Source of the DNA: Podarcis pityusensis
Taxonomy: Eukaryota
DNA length: 64,000 nt
Assembly: GCA_964106645.2 (NCBI GenBank)
Contig: OZ067038.1
Direction: 5' to 3' (one strand)
Shown piece by piece: positions 7,501 to 64,000 of the stretch; the first letter of the stretch is position 1, and each line of letters starts with the position of its first letter. Position numbers and translations under genes: made by a program. Under the pieces are notes generated by a model, which was not told where the DNA came from, ran no database searches, and saw only the letters and a program-made list of their open reading frames with translations.

Positions 7501-7705
7501 TTGCACATATTTTTGCACCAGTTGTATTTTTACACACAAGAACTAACTTTTGCCCTCAAAACTGATAATGATAAGCTAACATTTTAGATGTATGAAAAAA
7601 CATATATTGCAAATATTTTTGCACCAGTTGTATTTTTACACACAAGAACTAACTTTTGCCCTCAAAACTGATAATAATAAGCTAACATTTTAGACGTATG
7701 AAAAA
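7501..7705. repeat. Tandem duplication, 106-bp period
   Basis: 7501-7599 and 7607-7705 differ at 3 positions by eye. Confidence 0.9.
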
Positions 7706-10667
7706 GCTTTGGTGATAAATATTGCCACTGTCATTTTTCTTTGCAATGCAAAATGTCAGTATCAGATAAAAAATATTGTGGCAGGGGAGGGGGGGAGTGT
7801 GAGTCATCCAGGAAAGTATAATATGAAATAATTTTGTTTGCTACACAACATGCCATTACTGATCTGCAACATTTTGCATTGGCTCAGATTTGGAATAAGG
7901 AATGATTTGACCTGAGTTATGAAGACGCTTCCAATTTCTGGCTTAAATTAGGGTATCTGCAAAAATGCCCCACATGGCTCAAAGTGTACTATAATAAAGA
8001 CTTTTAAGCCTAAAGTGCTATCCCCATCACCCCATGGCTATTTTCATTCACAGAATCACCTGCTGGTGGAATTTGCTTAGTGGCTCAGTGCTCTCTGTGT
8101 TATCATTCTCTGACAAACCCACAAGAAAACCCACATGGGAAATTAAAGCTAACCGCAGCTCATGCGTTTCCATTCCACTCTGCCAAATGACCTCCACTGT
8201 GAAGGGAGTAGGCAGCACGCACGAGTGGGAAAGATACTGACAGGGCTACGCAAGGAACACATAGGCCTAGGGGTCACTTGCATGGTGCCACAGCACCAGA
8301 AGAATGTGTGGGCTATAAGCCTCTAGAGAGGGAAGCTCTAGAGTTCCTCCACAGAGAGCTGACCACAAGTTTGGCAATATTATTTTTACTGGAGGGAAAC
8401 TTTCAGTTTTGAAAGCACTTGCCTTTCGCAAAGAAACAGAGGCCAATGCATTCAACCCCAACTGAACAAAGGGTGCATTAAACAATCAAGCATTTCTGAA
8501 CCTCTCCTGTTTTCATGCACATATAAAATCATATGCCTCACTAAAAGGTGTGTTATTCATTTACCCTGGAGGAGTTTCCAGCTCTATGGGAAATGCATCT
8601 TTCCCACTCTCCGGCTTCATGTTGTAGATGAGGTGCTGCTACCTCCCTGAATGAATGAATGAATGAATGAATGGACAATGGGAACTAGCACAAAGCTGCT
8701 CCTGAGAAAATCAGAGAAATGAGTCAAGCTAAGCTTATCCTTCACTAAGTATTGGGGTTTAAAAGTTTCGTAGCAGTTATAAATATTAGCATATTACTAC
8801 TAGGTAAATGTCAGACACTAATCCAGCAGCTGCAGAAATTAAAAATAAGGAAAATGGGGTGAGCAAGATGAACCTAGACCACTGAAAGGAGGCGTGGTTG
8901 TCTAGTAAATCAGGAATGGCTCACCAGATGCTGTAGTAAAAACTCCTATCAGCCTCAGCCAGCACAACCAATGATCAGGAATGATAGGAAGTGGAGTCCA
9001 ACAATTTCTACAGGGCTGCAGGTTTCCCCACCCCTGTAATAAATTAATCAGGAGCAACAAGAAGTACCAGGAGTAGCCAGCATGCTGGGATGGTGCCATG
9101 CAACGACCCTTCCAACAGTGGTCTCATTGCCACTTACTTGGGAGATGTGGAGGGTAGGGTGTGGTTGGAGGTGTGTGGGCACAATGTTGGGAGATTGGCT
9201 TCACCAGTGTGGCCACGTAGCCCTGACCTCACTGCTACCTTCCCCTGATAAGCGGCAGTGACACTACTATTGGAATGGTGGATCTGCCGCACTGCTCGGC
9301 TACACCAGGTTCTATTGAAACTACACTTCCCCAAGAAGCCAATGAAGGCTCCAACGATGCTCAGAAATCTCAGAGTGAGGAACAGTTTAGAGCATGGCTT
9401 TTTTCTGTCACAGTATTCACTGGCGCAAACTACCAGCACTCCCCCCCCCCCCCGCGCCCCCAGCAACCATTTGCACTGATACCCACAGCACTTCTATCAA
9501 TATGAGTGTCAACATATCTTTCTTTTTTACATACAAAAAAAACCACCCCTCACTGGTTTAAAGAGTAAAACTGTAGTGTTATTTTTAAAAATACATTACT
9601 CCTTCTTGTGAACCATGAGTCAGATTTAAACTTTGTCAGTGTCTAAATGACTTTAAAGTAGCCCTCCGTTTTAAGCTTGGCTGAAATTTTTCCACCTCTG
9701 CCCTCCCTTCCCCTCCCCAGAGAAGCTGGTAAATTTGGGAAATGTAAGGGGAGAGAACTTGGCAGATGGGTGGGCTTGCTCTGAGCCTGTTGCAAGCCAA
9801 GGAGAGAATTAATTTAGAAGAGGGTTGGGTCAGCTCATAATTGCTCTGGGATTTCTCAACTGTGATAATTCATTTGCAGCCCCACTTTCCTGCAAGTCTT
9901 GTCCATCTCAATGAAGCTAAAGCAAATATTCCAGTTGTGACTTTCTCCTTTGTCTCTCTCTATCTATCTATCTATCATCATCTATCTAAATCTCCCATGC
10001 AGAAATGGTGCAGTTATTGTGCTGTGGCCCTTAGTCACACAGCAAAATGTCCCAGATGAACAAGTGCCAAGTGTACAAGCCTATTTTTTCCTTTGATTCA
10101 AAACTGAACAAGAATTAACAGTCCAAATTATGTGCAGAGGTAGTACACAAGTACCTTTCCTTACCGATGCAATTTCCTTCCTCTCTTTTACTTTGTGAAA
10201 GGCACTATTCTTTGGAGGCCTTGGAGACAGCACCCTGCTAGAACTAATGAACAAATTCATGGAATGCAGACGTCTATTTCAGCAAGCCACTGAAGTGGAG
10301 AACAGTAATGATCAAATTTGAATCCTGCTTATAACACATCCTTTGAAATTTACAATAGATCGGATGGCTGATTTTGGCTTAGCCTTACATGATTTGAAAA
10401 AGGGGATAAAGGTATATAATTGCTTGCCTGTCCACCTGCTACGTACTCCAGATGCATGCTGTGAGGGTTCAATCAATTTGTTAATGTTTATAACGTCCTC
10501 TAAAAATTATGCTGCAAACTAATCTACTGTGCAGCCCTATCTCAATGGCTCTGTTTAAGTCTCAAGACCTCCACAGTGTGGCCCACTGAGTTGAGTACAG
10601 CCCACCAACCACATGTAGTGGTGTGCTGGTGCTTCCAATTTCCCCTGTTTTGGCAGTTTCACAAAGG

Positions 10668-11040: not shown

Positions 11041-11302
11041 TCATAAACAAAATTGCTATTAAATTAAATGTTAATTATCTTGATTTAAAAGCATGCAAAT
11101 GTTATGCAAAGAGCTTATGTTTTGTAATTTAAAAAAGAATAAGATTGGGTTCATATGTCACTTGGCTTGTTTAACGCTCCTTACTGTATTCTAAATCGAG
11201 CACCCTTGTAGGATACACAGTGCTGGATTCTGATGAACATCCATGGAGAGATAAAAAAATTCCTTCCTGTAGCACCTTAAAGACCAACTAAGTTAGTTCT
11301 TG

Positions 11303-11340
11303 GTATAAGCTTTCGTGTGCATGCACACTTCTTCAGATAC
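11303..11340 (-). ncRNA. Minimal type I hammerhead ribozyme, inverted copy
   Basis: Exact reverse complement of 11353-11390. Confidence 0.7.
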
Positions 11341-11352
11341 ACAGATACATGT

Positions 11353-11390
11353 GTATCTGAAGAAGTGTGCATGCACACGAAAGCTTATAC
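11353..11390 (+). ncRNA. Minimal type I hammerhead ribozyme, copy 1
   Basis: GTAT-CTGAAGA-a-GTGTG(catg)CACAC-GAAA-GC-TT-ATAC: stem I GTAT/ATAC, core CUGANGA and GAAA, 5-bp stem II, palindromic AAGCUU stem III; predicted cleavage after 11386. Confidence 0.72.
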
Positions 11391-11530
11391 CAAGAACTAA
11401 CTTAGTTGGTCTTTAAGGTGCTACAGGAAGGAATTTTTTTATTTCGACTATGGCAGACCAACACGGCTACCCATCTGTAACTGGAACCATGGAAGGCACC
11501 ACATTGAGCCGCATGAAATGGAAGTCCTGT

Positions 11531-11568
11531 GTATCTGAAGAAGTGTGCATGCACACGAAAGCTTATAC
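11531..11568 (+). ncRNA. Minimal type I hammerhead ribozyme, copy 2
   Basis: Identical to 11353-11390; predicted cleavage after 11564. Confidence 0.72.
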
Positions 11569-12049
11569 CAAGAACTAACTTAGTTGGTCTTTAAGGTGCT
11601 ACAGGAAGGAATTTTTTTATTTCGACTATGGCAGACCAACACGGCTACCCATCTGTAACTGGATCCATGGAGAGAGTGATCAGTAGTTTTAGCTAAAATC
11701 TTTATTTGTGTCAGCCACAAGCCATAGCAAAGGACTCAAATACAATAAAATACAGATGTAGCTAGATGGTTGCTACTCAAAATGGGTTCTGAAAGTTTAC
11801 AACTATAAAAATCAAAGAGCTAATATACAAATTAAAAAACTAATACAAATAAATATATAAATAAAAGAGTCAGCTCTAATAAAGGCCTCTCACGATAAGG
11901 ACACTTGCTTTTTCTGGCGCACAATATCAGGTTTTCTAGAGAGTGCATATAATGCCCCCACCCCACCCCATGCACTATCGGACCCAAGGAATGGATGCAA
12001 TATTACTACTCACTTTACTTTGTTCACAATGATGAGGTCAATCAAATAG

Positions 12050-12755
12050 CAGAATATTTACCACACTGACCTCCTGTTTCCATAACCCAGGCCAAGAACC
12101 TCATCTCACAGTTAAAAAGTAATAAAGCACCAGGCAGAGACTACCTGCTCCCAGACCTACTAAAATCTCACACCGACTGGTGGGCTGCCCTGTTGTCAGT
12201 TATTTTCATTACGGTAATTGACTAGTCGGGAATAATGCCTGATGTCTAGGTCACAGCTATAATTATCCCTATATTTAAAAGGGGTTCAACATCTGACCCA
12301 GCTAACTATCATTGAATCAGTCTGTTATCTACAATTAGCAAATTATATGCAAAACAGCTCCATAATAGGTTGGTTGGGCTGGTTAACTGATGAAGCTATC
12401 CGTGCCAACAAGCAGCCAGGATTTAGACAAGGTAGATCCACCATAGACCACTGTTTTGTACTAGCCCATCTAATATGCTAAGAAACCTGGTGGTTATTTC
12501 GTTCTGGAGGTCTGTTCTTAACCTAAGGTACCACTTTAGCTAATGGGGCCTCCCGCTGCCACCACACGATTTCTGTTCTCATCCTGAAGCAAAGTTCTTA
12601 ACCCGAGGTACTATTTCTGGGTTAGCCGAGTCTGTAACCTGAAGCATCTGTAACCTGAAGCGTGTGTAACCGAGGTACCACTGTATGCATGTTCATTGAT
12701 GTGAAAGCAGCATTCGATTCAGTTTCTCAAGGAAGACTGTGGGACAAGTTGAATT
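12050..12755 (+). mobile_element. Degenerate non-LTR reverse transcriptase fragment (possibly RTE-X-like), interrupted by a MITE
   Basis: IIPIFKRGSTSDPANY, ISLLSTISKLYAK, QPGFRQGRSTIDH, FIDVKAAFDSVSQGRLWDKL, with stops. Confidence 0.75.
12497..12683 (+). mobile_element. Tc1/mariner(pogo)-type MITE, left end missing
   Basis: Homologous to 57909-58150; right TIR ...CGAGGTACCACTG followed by TA. Confidence 0.85.
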
Positions 12756-16566: not shown

Positions 16567-17351
16567 AATAATAATAATAATAATAAATTTTATTTATATC
16601 CCGCCCTCCCCAGCCGAAGCCGGGCTCAGGGCGGCTAACAACAATCAAATAATCAAAAAATCAAATAATCACACAATCTAAAAATATTTCATTATAAAAA
16701 TTAATTAAATCAAATTGATGGCAACCAATTAAGCAAAGTTCTGTGCAGGTTGCCAGAGGAGGGAGTCAGGCTGCGCCCTGATCAAAGGCCTGGTGGAACA
16801 ACTCTGTCTTGCAGGCCCTGCGGAAAGATGTCAAGTCCCGCAGGGCCCTAGTCTCTTGTGACAGAGCATTCCACCAGATTGGGGCCGCAGCCGAGAAGGC
16901 CCTGGCTCTAGTTGAGGCCAGCCTAACCTCTCTGAGGCCTGGGACCTTGAGGATGTTATTATTTGCAGACCGTAGGTTTCTCTGTGGGGCATACCAGGAG
17001 AGGCGGTCCCGTAGGTACGAGGGTCCTAGGCCGTATAGGGCTTTAAAGGTTAAAACCAGCACCTTAAACCTGATCCTGTACTCCACCGGGAGCCAGTGCA
17101 GCTGGTATAGTACCGGATGAATGTGATCTCGCAGCGAAGAGCCCATAAGGAGTCTCGCCGCGGCATTCTGCACCCGCTGGAGTTTCTGGGTCAGTCTCAA
17201 GGGCAGCCCCACGTAGAGCGAGTTACAATAATCCAGTCTGGAGGTGACCGTCGCATGGATCACAGTGGCTAGGTCAGGGCGAGAGAGATAAGGGGCCAAC
17301 TGCTTAGCTTGGCGGAGATGAAAAAATGCCGCCTTTGTTATAGCTGTAATC
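16567..17351 (-). mobile_element. 5'-truncated L2-clade LINE
   Basis: Open frame 16766-17351 with SRLDYCNSL, LQRVQNAAAR, LHWLPV, RAFSAAAPIWWN; (ATT)n tail; possible TSD TGTTGTTGTT (16557-16566, 17352-17361; low complexity); CpGs intact. Confidence 0.9.
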
Positions 17352-17799
17352 TGTTGTTGTTTGTTTAACTGCCCCACACAACTGAAGGCATGAAACGAGA
17401 AAGCAAATAAAAACTAGCCTCCTGGTGTAATTATTTGTAAAAAAAATACTAAGAAAACTGAAGCAAACATCCATAACCAATTCCATACATATAATTCATA
17501 TGAACTGCATATTGGCACTGTGCAAACTATATTAGAGAGAAATGGCAATTCCTTTTAATAAAGGAATAAATTTTTATCATGCATAAGTCGAGGGGGGGGT
17601 TGCATCATGGAGCCATTTCCACTTATGGGAGAAAAAGACTATAACAGCTTGTGGCCTGCACTCTCACTATGCCACCCATCTGTGGTTCAATAAAATTTTG
17701 GCCTGTTATTTTAAACTAGTGCATGCCTGATCTCAGTGATGGTCCAAAATGCCGGGACCTGAAGCAGAAGTCTAAGTACACCCACATAAGTGTGGCAAA

Positions 17800-20299: not shown

Positions 20300-20600
20300 T
20301 ACTGGCCCTTATCCAGTCCATCACTGCATCCAGGCACAAGTCTAGGTTGTAACTGCCAGGGGTCTGAGGCACAATTACCCAATATTACTCTCTGGAACTG
20401 GCCCAGGAACCAATGCAGGAGGACACCATGGACAATAGTGTCAAAAGTCACTGAGAAATCAAGCAAGAGTAACTTGGTGGCAGCCTTGCTGTCCCTTTCC
20501 CAATAGGCATAATCTGCCAAGTGATCAAGGTGAATTCCAACCTAAACCTGGGCCTGAGCCCAGACTGGAATGGGTCCAGAAAACTAGTATCTTCCTAAAA
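20300..20600 (-). mobile_element. Degenerate L2 RT fragment
   Basis: LLLLDFSVTFDTIVHGVLL resembles L2 LLDLSAAFDTIDH. Confidence 0.65.
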
Positions 20601-20684
20601 CATCTTGCCCAAAGAAGGGGATTTTTTTGCAGGTGGTAGTTATTGTAAACATCTGGGTTCAAGGAGGGCTACTTTAGGAGTAGT

Positions 20685-21234
20685 CAGCGGCGTAGCGTGG
20701 GTTATCAGCACCCGGGGCAAGGCAAGTAATTTGCGCCCCCTAACCCGGGGCAAGGCAAATAATTTGCGCCCCCTAACCCGGGGCAAGGCAAGTACAGTAA
20801 TTTACTCTCCCAAGCAGCAGCAGCAGCGAGGCTTCTCTTTCCCCCGCGCTCTCCTGGAGCTGCCTCTTTTCTTTCCTTTTTTCCTTTTCTCCAAGGCTTT
20901 TCGCTTTCTCTCCTTAATTGATTCCTCCTCCACACCGCAGCGTTTCCTAGCTGCTTCCCCCCCCTTCCCCTCTCTCTCCTCCTCGCTCTGCTTGCCTTGC
21001 CCTGCACCGGCAGCAGCCCGCCCGCCCGCCCACCCGGCTTCCTCTCCTTTTTTTGCCCGCGGCAGAAGGCTTCGCTCTCCCCCTTCCGCGACCTCCTCGC
21101 CAAGCCGAGCGAGCGCGGGCTCCCTAACCTGTGGATTTTAGTAGGGGCAGAGAGCTGCTAGTGCGAGCGCGCCCCCCGCCCATGTTGCGCCCGGTGCGGC
21201 CGGCCCCCCTGGCACCCCCCACGCTACGCCACTG
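20685..21234. mobile_element. Non-autonomous hAT-type element with CpG-rich interior
   Basis: Perfect 8-bp TSD GGAGTAGT (20677-20684, 21235-21242); 17-bp TIR CAGyGGCGTAGCGTGGG with 1 mismatch; 33-bp subterminal tandem repeat at 20710, 20743, 20776. Confidence 0.9.
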
Positions 21235-31239: not shown

Positions 31240-32612
31240 CTTTCTTTTTTATAAATGATTTTTATTAAGGTTTCAATAAAAAGTTAGACAGAAAAACATA
31301 GAAAATAAATACACAATACATAATCCAAAAAAAGAAGAAAAACACACAAAAAGCAAAAATAGAAACAGAACAATTAAAAACAATATCACTTTTTCATTTC
31401 CGTTTTTAAATTTACTTATTTTCTGGACTTCCTCATACCTCCCTCTTTTGTATCCCAGTCCAAATTGTTTGTCCAGCAATTTCTTTTCCACTTTTTTAAT
31501 CCCAATTTTTAATCTTAATATAATATAACGTCAAAATTTTACCTCTTAAATACCAAATTTCCATTTCCTTAAACTTCTTTAATCCTAATCTTTAATTAAT
31601 GTAATATAGCATTAAAATTTTACCTCTTAAGTACCAAATTTCCATTTCCTTAAACTTCTTTAATCCTAATCTTTAATCTTAATCTATCTATAACTTTATC
31701 CTGTACAGCTGGAAACCACTTATTTTCAATCCAACATCACTCTAGCATTCTTTAATTTTGCAGTGTTTCTGTAAATAATCTTTAAATTTCTTCCAATCTT
31801 CCTCCACCGACTCTTCTCCCTGGTCACGGATTCTACCAGTCATTTCCGCCAGTTCCATATAGTCCATCAGTTTCATCTGCCATTCCTCCAGCGTGGGAAG
31901 TTCTTGTGTCTTCCAATACTTTGCGATAAGTATTCTTGCTGCCGTTGTTGCATACATAAAGAAAGCTCTATCCTTTTTTAACACCATTTCGCCAACTATG
32001 CCCAGGAGAAAGGCCTCTGGTTTCTTGGGGAAGGTATATTTGAATACCTTTTTTAATTCATTATATATCATTTCCCAGAAAGCCTTAATCTTTGGGCACG
32101 TCCACCAAAGGTGAAAAAATGTGCCTTCAGTTTCTTTACATTTCCAACATTTGTTATCGGGCAAATGATAGATTTTTGCAAGCTTGACCGGGGTTATGTA
32201 CCACCTGTATATCATTTTCATAATATTCTCTCTTAAGGCATTACATGCCGTAAATTTCATACCTGTGGTCCACAACTGTTCCCAGTCAGCAAACATAATG
32301 TTATGTCCAACGGCTTGTGCCCATTTAATCATAGCCGATTTTACCGTTTCATCCTGAGTGTTCCATTTCAGCAGCAAGTTATACATTCATGACAAATTCT
32401 TAGTTTTGGGTTCTAACAGTTCAGTTTCTAATTTTGATCTTTCCACCTGGAAGCCAATTTTCTTGTCCAATTTATATGCCTCCATTATCTGAAAATAATG
32501 AAGCCAGTCTCGCACTTTGTTTTTTAATTTTTCAAAACTCTGCAATTTCAGTCTATCTCCATCTTGTTCCAAAATTTCCCAATATTTCGGCCATTTGACC
32601 TCCATATTGACC
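31240..32612 (-). mobile_element. 5'-truncated L1-clade LINE (ORF2 C-terminus plus 3'UTR)
   Basis: 17-bp TSD CAAACATTTACTGCTTT (31223-31239, 32613-32629); Cys-rich CWKCKETEGTFFHLWWTC motif; one in-frame stop at 32387-32389; A-rich tail. Confidence 0.92.
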
Positions 32613-50805: not shown

Positions 50806-52617
50806 TTTTTTTTTTTATAAGATATTTATTAGGATTTTTTTTAAATATTACAATAAAAAATGAAAAAGAAAAAAAATACAAAATAAAAATGATTAAAAAC
50901 ACTCAAATTTTCCATTGCTTATTTTTCCTTAGCTTGTTTCCCGGACCTCCTCATACCTCCCATTTTTGTATTCCAGTTCAGTTTGTTGGTTCAGCAAATC
51001 CTTACCCTCTTTATTTATCCTAATCTTTGGTCTTAAAATAGTAACGTTAGATTTTGACCTCTTAACAACCCCTTTTTCATATTCCCTTAAAGCATTACAG
51101 CTAGAAACCACTTAATTTCTATCCAACATCCTTCTAACATTCATTAATTTTACAATATTTCTGTAGATAATCTTTGAACTTCTTCCAATCTTCTTCCACC
51201 GACTCTTCTCCCCGGTCTCGGATTCTGCCAGTCATTTCTGCCAGTTCCATATAGTCCATCAGCTTCATCTGCCATTCTTCCAGAGTGGGTAAATCTTGTG
51301 TCTTCCAATACTTTGCAATGAGTATTCTTGCTGCTGTTGTGGCATACATAAAAAAGGTTCTATCCTTCTTTGACACCAATTGACCGACTATGCCCAGGAG
51401 AAAGGCCTCTGGCTTCTTCAAGAAGGTATATTTAAATACCTTTTTCAGTTCATTATATATCATTTCCCAGAAAGCCTTAATCCTTGGGCACGTCCACCAA
51501 AGGTGAAAGAACGTACCTTCAGTTTCTTTACATTTCCAACATTTATTATCGGGCAAATGATAGATTTTTGCAAGCTTGACTGGGGTCATGTACCACCTGT
51601 ATATCATTTTCATAATATTCTCTCTTAAGGCATTGCATGCCGTAAACTTCATACCTGTGGTCCATAACTGTTCCCAGTCAGCCATCATTATGTTATGTCC
51701 AACATCTTGTGCCCATTTAATCATAGCAGATTTCACCGTTTCATCCTGAGTATTCCATTTCAACAGCAAGTTATACATCTTTGACAAAATCTTAGTTTTG
51801 GGTTCTAATAGTTCTGTTTCTAATTTTGATTTTTCCACCTGGAAACCAATTTTCTTATCCAGATTATATGCCTCCATTATCTGATAATAATGAAGCCAGT
51901 CTCGCACTTTGTTTTTTAATTTCTCAAAACTCTGCAATTTCAGTCTATCTCCATCTTGTTCCAAAATTTCCCAATATTTCGGCCATTTGGCCTCCATATT
52001 GAGCTTTTTCAGAGCTTTTGCTTCCATCGGTGACAGCCACCTTGGAGTTTTATTTTCCAATAAGTCCTTGTATCTTATCCAGACATTAAACAATGCTTTC
52101 CTGACGATGTGATTTTTAAATGCTTTATGTGCTTTGACCTTATCATACTACAGATATGCATGCCATCCAAATACATTGTTAAAACCTTCTAAATCCAAAA
52201 TGTCAATGTTTTCAAGAAGCAACCATTCTTTCAACCAGTAAAAAGCTGCTGATTCATAGTAAAGTTTAAAGTCTGGCAGGGCAAATCCACTTCTTTCCTT
52301 TGCATCTGTTAATATTTTAAATTTTATTCTAGGCTTCTTGCCCTGCCAGACAAATTTAGAAATATCTCTCTGCCACCTCTTGAAACAGTCCATTTTGTCC
52401 ACAATTTGCAATGTTTGAAACAAAAACAACATTCTAGGCAATACATTCATTTTTACCGCAGCAATATAGCCCAGCAGTGAAAGCTTCAAATTTGACCAAA
52501 TTTCTAAATCTTTTTTCACTTCAGCCCAGCATTTTTCATAGTTATCTTTAAATAAATTCCCATTTTTTGCTGTCATGTTAATCCCCAAGTATTTAACTTT
52601 CTGAACCACTGTTAAAC
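50806..52617 (-). mobile_element. 5'-truncated L1-clade LINE (ORF2 C-terminus plus 3'UTR)
   Basis: 18-bp TSD CTCTGGCAGTGTGTTTGT (50788-50805, 52618-52635); KVKYLGI, KMNVLPRMLFLFQ, Cys-rich motif; TGG>TAG stop at 52148-52150; poly(A). Confidence 0.93.
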
Positions 52618-52949
52618 CTCTGGCAGTGTGTTTGTATAACCCTCAGCCCATGACAGTTTCGAGTGTCTACTGAGGCAGCAGAGGAACTTTGATGAACTAC
52701 AAAATCTAAGATGAAGTTTGCCTTTTTGACAGAAACATTGGGCCCTTGAGAAAGGCAATACCTCTGGACCTTTAAGACATGCACCATTCCACTGCCAGTT
52801 AGAGAAGGGCTCAACTAGCACAGAAGACATCTCTCCAACCTTTCTGAACAAAATTGCTCAAGACAGCATTAAGGACTATTAAGAGGGCAACAGGACCCAA
52901 AAAAAGGAAGATTTTGTATAAAGAGTGGGGTAGATAATTGGGGAGGAGT

Positions 52950-53088
52950 CAGGCATGGAGAACTTGTGGTGCTCTAGCTGTGGTTAGACTCCACTTTCCA
53001 TCAGCCCCATCAATGTGGACAATGCTCAGGAATGATAGAAGTTGTCATTGAGCAACATCTGGAGGACCACAGGTCTCCCATCCCTCCT
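52950..53088. repeat. Short palindromic MITE-like repeat; relatives at 8910-9035, 24975-25080, 39465-39570
   Basis: Shared GACTmCAAyTyCyATCA...ATGATrGrAGT..CAACATCTGGAGG pattern. Confidence 0.6.
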
Positions 53089-53403
53089 TTAAACATTATC
53101 AGCAACCACAATGGCAGAGGGTGCAGCACAAACAGACCTCCTATATCCAAGTTCATATGAACATACAAATGCTGCCTACCGGTAATTAAAAACAAACACT
53201 GGGTTATGTCCAGAGAATCTCCAGGGGAGTTAGCCTTACGCAAGGGTACTTTCCCAATGCCACCTTCACGCTTCAGCCCCCATCACCTTCAAAGCCTGAA
53301 TAAAACAAACTCTTGAAGGTGCTCTCCAGAATGTCATGGAATGGGACATGGGAGGCTGCAACAGGAGAAGAGAATCAACAGAAGTGAGAAGTGTGTTAGA
53401 TAA

Positions 53404-55165
53404 AGTAAAATACCTAGGGGTAAACATAACAGTAAAAAATCTAAGTCTATTTAAGGATAATTATGAAAAATGTTGGACAGAAATTAAGAGAGACTTAGAT
53501 AGTTGGTCAAAATTGAAACTTTCTTTGTTAGGCCGAATTGCTGCTATCAAGATGAACGTATTGCCAAGGATGTTGTTTTTATTTCAAACACTTCAGGTTT
53601 TGGACAAAACGGAGTGCTTTCAGAAGTGGCAGAGAGACATTTCTAAGTTTGTCTGGCAGGGCAAAAAGCCCAGAATTAAGTTTAAGATATTAACCGATGC
53701 AAAACAAAGAGGGGGCTTTGCCCTGCCAGACTTAAAGTTGTATTATGAAGCCGCAGCGTTCTGCTGGCTAAAAGACTGGCTACTTCTTGAAGACACTGAT
53801 GTGTTGGATTTGGAAGGGTTTAACAACGCTTTTGGATGGCATGCATATTTATGGTATGACAAGGTTAAAGCAAATAAGGCCTTTAAGAACCATATTGTCA
53901 GAAAATCACTGTTTAATGTCTGGACAAAATATAAAGACTTGCTGGAAAATAAAACACCAAGGTGGCTTTCACCTCTGGAAGCTAAGGCCCGAAAAAGACC
54001 CAATATGGAGGCTAAATGGCCAAAATATTGGGAAATACTAGAAAAGGATGGAGACAATTGGAAATTGCAGAGTTTGGAGAAAATGAAAGACAAAGTGCGA
54101 GATTGGTTACATTACGCTCAGATTAAAGAAGTTTTTAAAAATGATAAGAAACTAGGGTTCCAGGTGGAGAAATCGAAACTAGAAACAGAATTGTTAGAAC
54201 CAAAGATTAAGGTATTTTCAAGGATGTATAACTTGCTGTTGAAATGGAATACACAAGATGAAACGGTTAAATCGGCTATGATAAGGTGGGCACAGGACAT
54301 TGGGCATAATATCATGTTTGAGGACTGGGAGAGGTTGTGGAGTAATGGATTGAAATTTACTGCATGTAACGCTCTGAAAGAAAATGTAATGAAAATGATT
54401 TATAGATGGTATATGACCCCAGTCAAACTTGCCAAAATTTACCACCTGTCTGATAATAAGTGTTGGAAATGCAAAGAGTGTGAGGGAACGTTCTTCCACC
54501 TCTGGTGGACTTGCCCTAAAGTGAAGGCGTTCTGGGAAATGATTTATAATGAATTGAAAAAGGTATTTAAATATACCTTCACTAAGAAACCAGAGGCTTT
54601 CCTTTTGGGTATTGTCGGCCAAGGGGTGGCAAAGAAGGACCAGACATTTTTTATGTATGCAACAACAGCAGCAAGGATACTTCTCGCAAAACACTGGAAA
54701 ACTCAAGATCTACCCACACTGGAAGAATGGCAGATGCAACTGATAGACTACATGGAACTGGCTGAAATGACCGGCAGAATTCGTGACCTGGGAGAAGAGA
54801 GGATTGAGGAGGATTGGAAGAAATTTAAGAACTATTTACAAAAGCATTGTAATTTGAGTGAATGCTAAATAAGATGCTAGACTAAAACAACTGAGCACCA
54901 CTAAATTTAGAAGTTTTTAAGAAAATAAGTAAGACTGTGAAAATTTAGCTCCTTCTGAGAATTATAAGATTATGAAATATAGAAGGGATATAAGAATTTA
55001 AATAAGATGATAAATTGCTGACAAAATGTTATAACGATGAAAGTGGGAGCGGGAGATGTGAGGAAGTCCAAAGAAAATGTGAAACTATGTTAAGACAAAT
55101 GTTATATTGTTTATTATGTTTACTCTTATTGTAAAACCCAATAAATTGCTTTAAAAAAAAAAAGA
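53404..55165 (+). mobile_element. 5'-truncated L1-clade LINE, uninterrupted ORF2 C-terminal frame
   Basis: 18-bp TSD GAGAAGTGTGTTAGATAA (53386-53403, 55166-55183); open frame to 54868; AATAAA 55140-55145 and poly(A). Confidence 0.93.
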
Positions 55166-57126: not shown

Positions 57127-57908
57127 AGAAAACTCAGTGTCACTAACTTCTGAATACAATATACATTGTACTGGATGTGTATCTCGGTGACTCCAGAAAA
57201 AAAGACTGCAGCTTGTTGACAGACAAAACAGTAGACAGAATGTGAAAAAGAAACCTGCAGGATTTGTCACCTGCAGCAACCCCCAGTGCTAACTGAAGTT
57301 TTCTTTTGGCAGAAATATAATTTTAATTGGATTAGACATTATAGGCATATATAACAAGGCAAGCTGAAGAGCACTGAGACACAACAGAAAGGTACAATTC
57401 AGGAAGTGGCTTGTAACTCCCTTGGGTCTGTTGGAAGAAAGTGGATTTACATTTCAGGACATTCAAGTTAAGATGCTATGAACTGGCAGCCAGAGACTGT
57501 AGACAATCAACTGAGCTCATTGTCAGTTCAGAAAGAAAGAGATGAATGAGAAGATATGAAAAAGAGAAATGTGCTTGGAAAACTAGCAAAAAAAAAAAGG
57601 TAGTAATAATGGTCAACAGGGTCTAAAATGTTGCAAAAATAGAAAGATGAACTGCACCACACTTGAATATGAGAATATTAATATTTCCTCTTTAACTTGG
57701 ACTGCCAAAAGCATTGCAATGGAATTGGATATCAGTTTTAAAAGATCTATGTAGGAACTAGGAGGAACCTCACATGACACAGGAAATAACACTGACATAA
57801 TTAACTCTTCATCTGTAATATTGGATGAAATATGGAATTACTACCTTGCAAGTCAATAAGGTTTATCACACCAATGTATGAATTAGAAGAGCCCTCCTGG
57901 ATCCAGTA

Positions 57909-58150
57909 CAGTGGTACCTCGGGTTAAGTACTTAATTTGTTCCGGAGGTCCATTCTTAACCTGAAACTGTTCTTAACCTGAAGCACCACTTTAGCTAATG
58001 GGGCCTCCCGCTGCCGCCATGCCACCAAAGCACAATTTATGTTCTCATCCTGAAGCAAATTTCTTAACCCGAGGTACTATTTCTGGGTTAGCAGAGTCTG
58101 TAACCTGAAGCGTCTGTAACCTGAAGCGTATGTAACCCGAGGTACCACTG
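57909..58150 (+). mobile_element. Tc1/mariner(pogo)-type MITE, full length
   Basis: 18-bp TIR CAGTGGTACCTCGGGTTA/TAACCCGAGGTACCACTG; TA duplication on both sides. Confidence 0.92.
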
Positions 58151-60899
58151 TACCATGTTTCCTACAGCCAGATGCCTTCAGGTGCCCCACAAGAAAAGGA
58201 AGAGTGAAATCATTTTCTCCTGTTTTCTGCCCCCCTGCCCCTCCCCCCCTACAAAATGCTGTCTCTGAGTCTGGATGTAACTTATTGTAATCATAATTCA
58301 TTGCCACTTGTGGTCTTATCCTCCACGAATTTGTGCAAGCCTAATCATACGTCTTATTGAATTCAATGGGGCTTGCTCCCAGGTAAATTGAGTTAGGAAT
58401 GCAGCCTAATAGTGGCATCACCAGGAATAGACAATGTAGTGGAACAGTGACACACACCAAGGGTGTCATAACAGCAGTGCCACCACTGCTTATCGTGATG
58501 GTGCAGAATAAGGGCTATGTGATGCTGAGGTTGTGGTAGTAATGTGGACACACAGGCAAGAGCACTGGATTGCCTCTACCAGTGTCCCCCATCCATTCCT
58601 GACCACACCACCATTCTTCCCTGTCCCTGCACAGTGTTGATAAGTGGCGCAATGCCACTGCTGGGAAGGTGGTGCCATGGTACTGCCCTACCATATTGGC
58701 TGCTCCTGGGCATTATCTCTGTGGAAAGGTACTTCCTTTCTTCTGTTCTGAATCTTTACATAATTCATATTTAATAGATTATACCAAGTTCCCAGCATGC
58801 ATAAATTTATGCACATCTACCACCACCACCCCACTATGCAGCTTTTTCTAAACTAAAAGTCCTCCAAGGACATATTTTTTTCCAGTTACTCCCTGTATAA
58901 GTGCAAAGAACACTACAAAAGCACCACACAAATGTAAGCATTACTGTATTGCTATTTTATTTGCTAACATGGGTGGATTTGTAATCATGTGCCTCCTGCA
59001 AGCATCTCATCTTGCTAGTACTCTAGCAATATAAACCTATGCAAACACTTGACACCCAAGGAAAGTGTGATTCAACCAAACTTGTGGGTTTATTTACCCC
59101 AATGGCTGCAGAGTTTTCACTTACATTAACACTGGCTGTTGCTTCAGATTTGTAGGTTTGCCAGCAACACACAAATGTACACCAGCCCCCTTAACATATT
59201 GGTGTTTGATGGTGCAAAGTTGTCAGTCAACATCAAGGCTGGCTTACCAGTGCCATATTGTTATAGCTCTTCTGCATCCTGGCTACAAACCAGACTTACT
59301 AACGTGAGCATTTCAACAAACATGATTCAGCAAACTAGGTGGCTAAAATACCACTCAAAACAACTGAAGACTGCTTAGGTAGGTTTGCAAAAGCTCTCTG
59401 TTTCAGTGACCAAGATAAATTACACCACAGAAGCTCATTTTCTAAGTGTTCAAGCTGTCTTCCTTGCCCTCCTACTAGTATTCAAAAAGCAGAATGAAAA
59501 ACCTTAAGTCAAAGCCACAGCAAACACTTCCCCACCCCAAATTGAAACCATCTCTAGCTTTAAAACCCAAATGCCCAATTAAATGCAAGTGGAATGTAAT
59601 TATTAGCATTCCTAAAGCAAAATAAAACCAAAACAACAAGAATATGTTAATTCAGCAACCTTAACGAAGAATCTATGGAAGTTCGTGGGAAGAAAAAATC
59701 CATTGTCTGTCAAAATATGGTTATTCACTGAAACAATAAATGTCAGCTAAACCACAATTCTTGTGAATAGTAATTTCCAACACAGTTCTTTGGCATTTTA
59801 ACACAAGATAGTTGGGGCTGTTTAACTGTTCAGATAGCCATGTGAGCGTTGTCAACTTAACTTTCAATGAAAAACAAAGTTTCATTTCATACAGTCAAGC
59901 TGGTCATCCTAACCTGGCTGTAATGAGACATTACAGAATTCAACAGACTTTTTTTTTACTCCTAGCATATCTTGGTTCCACAGTGAACCTGAAAAGCACC
60001 TGCAGTTTGTGCCACTTCAAAATCAAAAAGCAAATTGTCCAAGTATTACTTTTAATTCAGAGCATTCTGCTGGCTACGCAAAGAATGATAACCAACTGTG
60101 TATAAAGGACTTTCATGAGCAGAACATGACTCCCCCTTTCTCTCCTGACCCTGGAACAGCAAACAGGTACAATACCATGGTAAAGTTCTCAGTAAAGTTC
60201 TGGCCATTTTAAACCAGTATTTGGACGCCTCAGCAGCATCCTGCCACTATCAGTAACAGCTTCCAGAACTACATATATGTATGCAATTTGAGACTTTTGC
60301 AGAACTATATACCCAGTTTGCAGAATCAGCTGAAAAGCAGCTAATGTCAATAAAAAAGTACTTAACCACAGAAGAAAAATCCAGAACGACATGCTTTCAC
60401 CACCAGCAGTCAATTTATGCTCTGAGCCTAAAAGCGCCAAGCTGAAAGAGGCATGAAATCTACTTTGCATGTATTTCCTTTGAACATTATTAACGCTGAA
60501 TATATATGTCTTCCAAATCCATATACTGTGGACTTCATCCCTACCTAACCCCACCTTGGCCCAACGTCATTTTTCCAAATTAGAGTTGAAATGCATACAA
60601 GTTTGCCTTGAGGTTGTGAATACTACTTTGACAGTGTGCTTACATGTGAGTCCTATTGAGTTAAATTAGGCTTACCCACAGAAAAAAATAATGCATTGGA
60701 AATGTCTAACTAAAACTGAAAAATGCATTCAGTTCATTTGGCAACTTCTTTTTTATTTTATTGAATAGTGTGATAATGATCAGGTGGCACACAGGGTTGG
60801 TTCACAGATGCATGTTCTATTGCTTGATGGCTTCATCACTGAATAGAGCCATTGCACATCAAACAGTGTCCCCCATCATATATTTGAGCAGCTAAGTGT

Positions 60900-63822: not shown

Positions 63823-63983
63823 GGTTAAGAACTTTGCTTCAGGATGAGAACAGAAATTGTACAGCGGCAGCATAGCAGCAGCAGGAGGTCCCATTAGCTA
63901 AAGTGGTGCTTCAGGTTAAGAACAGTTTCAGATAAAGAACTGACCTCCGGATTGAATTAAGTACTTAACCCGAGGTACCAGTG
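63823..63983 (-). mobile_element. Tc1/mariner(pogo)-type MITE, partial
   Basis: Reverse-orientation homolog of the left part of 57909-58150; ends in TIR plus TA. Confidence 0.85.
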
Positions 63984-64000
63984 TAAGTCCAGTATAGAAA

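Follow-up and report, generated by a model that had tools for sequence, protein, structure and literature searches.

A tandem hammerhead insert in Podarcis pityusensis as a probable by-product of a Neptune-type Penelope-like reverse transcriptase

An insert of approximately 410 bp in a 64,000-nucleotide stretch of the Podarcis pityusensis genome (GCA_964106645.2, contig OZ067038.1; hereafter the window) is composed of three exact pieces of the 5' end of a Penelope-like element (PLE), which were probably laid down in one event by the element's reverse transcriptase (RT) acting on a single capped RNA, with two internal priming sites and a jump back from the cap. The observed basis for this reading comprises the pieces themselves, their identity to full-length copies, the target-site duplication (TSD), the clustering of ends, and the lack of a junction common genome-wide; the transcription start, the RNA 3' ends, and cleavage are deduced from DNA ends only. 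The insert works like, and belongs to, PLE insertion products, and short tandems of this type have probably been produced again and again as by-products, rather than by a retrozyme family that spreads itself. Taken alone, the locus is minor, since by-products like it number about 54 among approximately 1,900 hammerhead copies. The parent is an apparently intact young Neptune-type element, and the insert ends map its start site, two priming sites, and a jump site, which makes two points directly testable: the purpose of the hammerhead and the regeneration of the pseudo-LTR (pLTR), described as having "no obvious mechanism" (PMC2377424).

The positions in the parent element are given as q, with q1 at window position 11350. 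The insert, which is without a promoter, runs in the order TSD, inverted q93-2, 8-nt filler, q2-178, T, q2-136, and TSD. The left TSD of 13 bp (11239-11251, plus strand; its last base is common to the insert) matches exactly the right TSD (11663-11675, plus strand), the first bases of which agree with template q136-144 at 8/9 positions; in the element family, TSD length has its mode at 12-13 bp (40/63). The inverted copy of q2-93 (11251-11342, minus strand) contains a third hammerhead, and its 3' end is priming site A. The filler at the head-to-head joint (11343-11350, no strand assigned) consists of a re-copied piece of the element 5' end plus T and presumably arose by slippage. Direct copy 1 (11351-11527, plus strand; q2-178), here called the second lap, comprises a hammerhead, the leader, and the first 26 codons of the parent open reading frame (ORF), and direct copy 2 (11529-11663, plus strand; q2-136) ends at priming site B and carries a tail of approximately 40 nt. 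Between them lies a single untemplated T (11528, plus strand) at the jump junction; a T precedes q2 in 7/7 junctions with bases inserted before q2. Each of the three pieces matches the 5' end of the full-length copy L034 with 100% identity, the inverted arms are 96 nt long and 99% complementary, and 11350-11671 forms a tandem repeat with a period of 178, 1.8 copies, and 99% matches. An earlier note on this DNA had treated the tandem pair as the whole feature; the pair is real, and what it missed is the inverted third hammerhead at 11251-11342 and the 13-bp TSD around the insert.

The two direct hammerheads (11353-11390 and 11531-11568, both plus strand) are minimal type I hammerheads, identical to each other and 178 nt apart as the earlier note had stated, with the cores CTGAAGA-A-[GTGTG CATG CACAC]-GAAA-GC-TT at 11357 and 11535. 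The boxes of PLE minimal type I hammerheads are present as CUGAAGA (q8-14), GAAA (q30-33), and the NUH site CUU (q35-37); an extra A15 follows the A9 position, the pair G10.1-C11.1 corresponds to G16-C29, and all forced pairs are valid in folding. Stem I has 4 bp formed by GUAU (q4-7) with AUAC (q38-41), stem II has 5 bp with a CAUG loop, and the dimer stem III is the 4-bp palindrome AGCU, which pairs only with a second copy. Cleavage is predicted after U37 of each unit in the C-U-U triplet, which is located at the cut positions proposed before, i.e., after 11386 and 11564. The assignment to Penelope-type minimal hammerheads is upheld. The 35-nt hammerhead core has 1,920 genome occurrences and its reversed control has 0, so the cores are not due to chance. 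Genome-wide, the cut-site base q37 is U in the youngest subfamily and mostly C in older ones and in a related organism, and loop II varies (q22) across genome copies with stem II conserved. The Rfam scan of the locus gave no hammerhead family match; its 17 matches were sub-threshold microRNA matches, which appear because of the inverted repeat. A host microRNA reading was rejected, as the insert is young and the Rfam scores are sub-threshold.

The parent was found by searching the genome (1.5 Gb, 336 contigs) with the 178-nt unit, which returned 67 matches from 40 scored of 1,895 candidates; among the matches listed were copies whose "spacer" continues into a long ORF. The parent unit is 3,010 bp long, and comparisons of L034 with three other copies show 13, 10, and 16 differing sites. 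Its frame is open for 921 codons, 910 of them from the ATG at q101, and encodes RVT_1 (Pfam, E 3e-12) and GIY-YIG (E 2e-4) domains; the GIY-YIG score of 21.9 is just under the Pfam cut-off of 22.6, with the motif VYAIKCQQC..YIG present. Between RT and EN lies the linker CNKPRCQLC at residue 770 (CX4CxxC), and a CX2-5CxxC linker marks Neptune or Nematis (PMC8557442). From its sequence, the parent appears to be an autonomous Neptune-type EN+ PLE, with the clade taken from the linker, which Nematis also has. A PDB sequence search gave 0 matches. In layout, the family shows pLTR partial tandems, the inverted 5' copy, the one-sided tail, and the TSD. The earlier note had seen no ORF in the unit; 11450-11527 (plus strand) translates into the first 26 residues of the 910-aa protein, and the approximately 43-nt "spacer" lies inside these codons. 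The spacer, as the start of the parent ORF, therefore codes for protein and comes from an autonomous element's 5' end. Full-length copies with uninterrupted frames of 921-926 codons and about 99.5% identity occur at L034:1704-4713 (G000:C2, near 122.63 Mb), L032, L033, L037, L038, and L039; this Neptune-type PLE is very young and probably still active. In two pairs, L031/L032 (G000:C6, 47 kb apart) and L039/L040 (G000:C1, 4.7 kb apart), the element and its flanks are duplicated at 99.6-99.9% identity, reflecting either a recent segmental or tandem duplication or an assembly duplication.

The ends of the inserts point to the 5' end of the RNA. The segment q7-56 has 1,463 exact young copies. In 498 of them the match also covers the 18 nt upstream; the remaining 965/1,463 do not continue 18 nt upstream, although some of these fail through point mutation. 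The copies not running on have their 5' ends at q-3 to q7 in 24/30 scripted loci and at q36-40 in 0/30. In a hand count among the matches listed, with a pattern that excludes run-through copies, the corresponding values are 70/100 and 1/100. Since ends are lacking at q36-40, the copies do not begin at the ribozyme cut. The parent has a TATA box at -30, i.e., 30 nt upstream of the 5' end cluster, and TATA plus initiator has been described in a pLTR of rotifer elements (PMC3846280). Transcription would start at q2-q4, 30 nt below the TATA box, which would make the hammerhead the first thing in the RNA. In the junctions with bases inserted before q4, G is the last base in 12/13. An extra G is expected when an RT copies a cap; the G before q4 may thus be a copied cap, and the T before q2 may reflect slippage on the GU repeat. 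The copies stopping at q2 have the same extra base next in 30/33 (hand count among the matches listed), often with short re-copied pieces, which is like telomerase-style slippage at a template end.

The target-joined 3' ends lie either in site A (q85-106) or in site B (q120-145). Of 43 inverted inserts, 37 have one end at each of the two sites, a count that omits loci under 93% identity. Both target strands would therefore be primed on one RNA, one at A and the other at B, which gives head-to-head copies with a tail on one side. Each cDNA would extend to the cap, where the RT adds a base; one cDNA would then jump to about q178-191 of the same RNA and copy the leader again, and the two cDNAs would be joined head to head. 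The template would be linear, capped, and uncut by the ribozyme, and the landing at q178-191 is probably a trimmed RNA 3' end just past the protein-bound region. In the window, the 8/9 match of the target to the template bases after site B suggests that pairing may have aided priming here. The required RNA of the anole Poseidon in vitro reaches approximately 55 nt beyond the RT start sites (PMC11167929), and site B plus 55 nt, about q188, coincides with the jump hot spot. Rarer jump landings are found at q259, q294, q300, q328, q337, q698, and q1054. Counting against two-site priming is the reading of head-to-head inverts as self-priming on an antisense template (Arkhipova et al., 2013, PMC3846280). 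One locus (L041:1128-2290) has its target-joined end far inside the ORF, at q1170, together with an inverted q4-134 copy, which indicates priming at a distance from the usual sites.

The junction search of the genome, which detects donors only from q174 to about q219, identified 60 short junctions, which are distributed over 54 loci and fall into 43 types; the junction of the window locus is unique (1/54). The tandem period ranges from 170 to 210 nt over the 54 loci and is 176-190 nt in 48/54, in agreement with the earlier claim that the unit size is no random truncation. The upstream copy ends (the jump donor) at q178-191 in 47/54 loci. The search for the same 178-nt architecture, suggested in the earlier note, gave a period of 178 at just 6/54 loci, reached via four different joints. 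Only 17 places show a direct tandem of two exact young hammerheads at a spacing of 88-258 nt, with periods of 178-187 in 10/17 and outside this range in 7/17, this search being wider than the junction search. Among 100 of 269 matches listed, collapsed by hand to 57 places, 34 continue into the ORF, 23 break at q175-201, and 0 break at q202-229; 22 of the 23 breaks join the 5' region of another copy. Eight junction types recur, and each spans at least two subfamily haplotypes. There is no sign of a master copy for the 178-nt unit among the 54 loci, and one amplified 178-nt master was rejected, since the window junction is unique. The earlier proposal of a self-contained non-autonomous family is therefore not sustained, given that the pieces are the parent 5' end, the window junction stands alone, and the recurring junctions cross haplotypes. 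The same note had named heterogeneous spacers of autonomous Penelope 3' ends as the finding that would overturn it, and in essence this is what the genome shows: the spacers are heterogeneous and the element is autonomous, but they derive from the 5' end of the ORF and not from a 3' end.

The reading proposed there, a self-propagating non-LTR retrozyme whose tandem hammerheads release a 178-nt RNA that is circularized and re-inserted by the Penelope enzyme, is very unlikely. Its size and layout fit the published definition, and reptile families have a mean of 176 bp (bioRxiv 10.64898/2026.07.22.740005). Trimers or tetramers with identical repeated junctions are present at 5/54 loci, with a maximum of 4 units, and the rolling of a circle, or later DNA duplication, would give the same multimers with one junction, which counts against the by-product reading. 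Similarly, L109 and L124 are the only loci sharing both junction and haplotype (L093 is close), as a short master would also produce. Against the retrozyme stand the 43 junction types in 54 loci and the form of the ends: a circle is endless, but 34/54 loci have an outermost copy that ends at q8 or upstream of it, and in all 5 multimers this copy ends at q2-q5, which a circle does not force. The insert also lacks a TATA box, and a read-through transcript would be predicted to pair hammerhead 1 into a 96-bp hairpin with the inverted arm; the computed double-hammerhead fold lies 22.5 kcal/mol above the best fold over the span considered in the earlier note and 77.5 kcal/mol above it once the inverted arm is included, so that the release of a 178-nt RNA from this locus, as previously envisaged, is unlikely. 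Minimal hammerheads cleave poorly even as dimers (PMC4209133), and 8/9 frog dimers failed to cut (10.64898/2026.07.22.740005). The hammerheads in the insert are predicted to be passengers, and the insert to have been dead on arrival.

Two further explanations concern how the tandem was joined. In one, the by-product origin is the same and the jumping cDNA lands on a second RNA, or at an internal site beside a protein-bound hairpin (q169-180), instead of at the 3' end of the same RNA; this is unlikely but deserves more weight than the retrozyme. The donors are found immediately 3' of a predicted small hairpin (AUGG-AAGU-CCAU), a related enzyme has been modelled as a dimer (PMC11167929), and 14/34 loci have no 5' end common to the two copies, many of them at inversion joints, which counts against the by-product reading as preferred here. 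However, the upstream and downstream copies share a 5' end in 20/34 readable loci with 8.9 expected, and 0/20,000 permutations reach 20, also within subfamily groups (20/54 loci have no readable upstream start). The shared ends include the rare q-20, q-1, and q5, and private variants are common to the copies inside one locus (e.g., L111, L125, L097, and L108). Junctions are, moreover, identical inside multimers and different between loci, all of which argues against a second RNA or an internal site. In the other explanation, the tandems formed at the DNA level after insertion, by slippage or unequal crossing over, or by random truncation. It would yield the identical junctions of the 5 multimers, but copy 1 has q137-178, which is absent from copy 2, and therefore cannot be its duplicate; a single TSD encloses all pieces, the joints have untemplated bases, and the end hot spots are sharp. 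This origin is very unlikely, random truncation was rejected on the sharpness of the end hot spots, and DNA-level duplication explains at most the extra units of the multimers. The jump of one cDNA back to the same capped RNA is the preferred account.

The long copies behave differently at the start site. Of 40 loci with the ORF start, 28 contain the complete ORF and reach the next hammerhead. Among these 28, 25 continue past the start site to q-36 or further, and the others stop at q4, q41, and q85; L031 and L032 have common flanks and do not count as independent loci. The start site is the stopping point for about two thirds of hammerhead copies, as against 1/26 of those reaching it after a full ORF. 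The 26 head-to-head pairs counted by hand among the matches listed comprise 17 short/short, 9 long/long, and 0 mixed pairs. In the scar test for strand transfer at the cap, 19 run-through copies are non-A at q1 (7 T, 7 C, and 5 G) and at least 498 are exact, which gives no T excess. Taken together, the run-through, the lack of mixed pairs, and the lack of excess scars indicate that the template of the long copies has no end at the start site, a pattern that fits a circular full-length template. It is tentatively suggested, with more doubt than confidence, that two templates are used: uncut capped RNA gives short dead inserts, including the approximately 180-nt tandems, and a hammerhead-cut, ligated 3,010-nt circle with the same priming sites gives run-through past the start site, by which the promoter and the pseudo-LTR are regenerated. 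If true, the approximately 180-nt tandems now counted as reptile "retrozymes" would be dead inserts from uncut capped RNA. A full-length circle formed by two pLTR hammerheads was proposed, without evidence, in PMC4209133. Alternatively, strands may be transferred efficiently from the cap to the 3' pLTR, or longer arrays may be read through, although no triple array occurs among the matches listed. Hammerhead cutting is not needed by a related enzyme in vitro (PMC11167929), which is an argument against its being obligatory for the insertion step as such.

In a related organism, four raw RNA runs were compared with the parent 5' region. The reads, mostly 90-99% alike, cover both strands, and 91-97% continue into other sequence, with loose ends at q2-5, q91-95, and q132-134. 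A joint of q193 to q1 is present in 2/4 runs (7 and 12 reads), and no pile of ends is seen at the cut site among the matches listed from the four runs. These reads show that the relative has the same insert layout; this bears on neither expression nor cleavage at the window locus.

Several other repeats share the window with the insert. Those at 12484-12671, 57907-58152, and 63823-63985 are short, related to one another, and carry terminal inverted repeats as well as a 16-bp repeat in the interior; they are presumably a non-autonomous DNA transposon. LINE ORF2 fragments at 31490-32609 and 51096-54868 include a 1.5-kb inverted pair with 79% identity, and an 81-bp tandem ends one of them (31490-31677). 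A 215-codon frame at 16766-17413 (minus strand) is taken by us to resemble the C-terminal part of an L2/CR1-type LINE protein. The GC-rich island at 20500-21200, which contains a 33-bp tandem (20710-20794), may represent the promoter of a host gene, and 7501-7712 holds a 106-bp tandem (1.9 copies, 96% matches) without a hammerhead motif.

The open PubMed Central and bioRxiv literature, searched by title and abstract, gave no PLE cap stop, second lap, or jump hot spot; the genome-wide pattern may be a new variation on PLE insertion, and the reptile families of the 2026 preprint may already contain the unit. Among known systems, EN+ PLEs of the Neptune type resemble the parent in having a single RT plus C-terminal GIY-YIG ORF with the CX2-5CxxC linker, and are also alike in the hammerhead in the pLTR, the partial tandems, the inverted 5' copy, and the one-sided tail of 30-40 nt (Craig et al., 2021, PMC8557442). 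In the published EN+ PLE partial tandems, the element 3' end is upstream, whereas in the window the upstream copy is the 5' end with the ORF start, joined to the start site (PMC8557442). The anole Poseidon PAc likewise has a tail set by two adjacent internal RT start sites, and both target strands are extended (Frangieh et al., 2024, PMC11167929). It belongs to another clade, and its ORF starts inside the hammerhead, unlike the parent here, in which it starts about 60 nt after it (PMC11167929). The third landing site for template jumps and the cap stop would be features of the present element that the accessible text of that report does not describe for Poseidon PAc (PMC11167929).

The R2 reverse transcriptase is known for template jumping, in which it runs off the template 5' end, adds untemplated bases, and continues on a 3' end. 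The proposed second lap likewise involves run-off, untemplated bases, and a new 3' end, but here the jump apparently returns to the same RNA, after internal and not terminal priming. The metazoan PLE minimal hammerheads share with those of the window the extra base between A9 and G10.1, the G10.1-C11.1 pair, the palindromic 15.2-16.2, the short stem I, the dimer-dependent design, and the occurrence of closely spaced pairs in opposite orientation (Cervera and de la Pena, 2014, PMC4209133). The hammerheads here differ from them in the 5-bp stem II and in the predicted cut after U in the youngest subfamily and after C in older ones (PMC4209133).

The animal non-LTR retrozymes are likewise short tandem type I hammerhead units of 170-400 nt related to pLTRs (see Cervera and de la Pena, 2020, PMC7229834; Li et al., 2026, 10.64898/2026.07.22.740005). 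The layout of the window locus, with 1.8 units of 178 nt each bearing a type I hammerhead, lies within this range and would pass the tandem-plus-hammerhead filter of the preprint (10.64898/2026.07.22.740005). The 54 loci do not appear to form a family from a common non-coding unit, as they have an ORF spacer and junctions that cross haplotypes, and the insert ends do not indicate spread via a ribozyme-cut circle, as the outermost copies stop at the presumed start and 0/30 stop at the cut site. Retrozymes that have been validated show canonical hammerheads, circles in abundance, and long arrays (PMC7229834; 10.64898/2026.07.22.740005), in contrast to the minimal hammerhead, the coding spacer identical to the parent, the maximum of 4 units, and the new junction at nearly each locus found here. 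The preprint itself ascribes such reptile units to local amplification of terminal sequence (10.64898/2026.07.22.740005), and its reptile mean of 176 bp suggests that units of this kind have already been counted there as retrozymes. The present results suggest that such reptile short tandem hammerhead units can arise repeatedly as second-lap products with no circle of their own.
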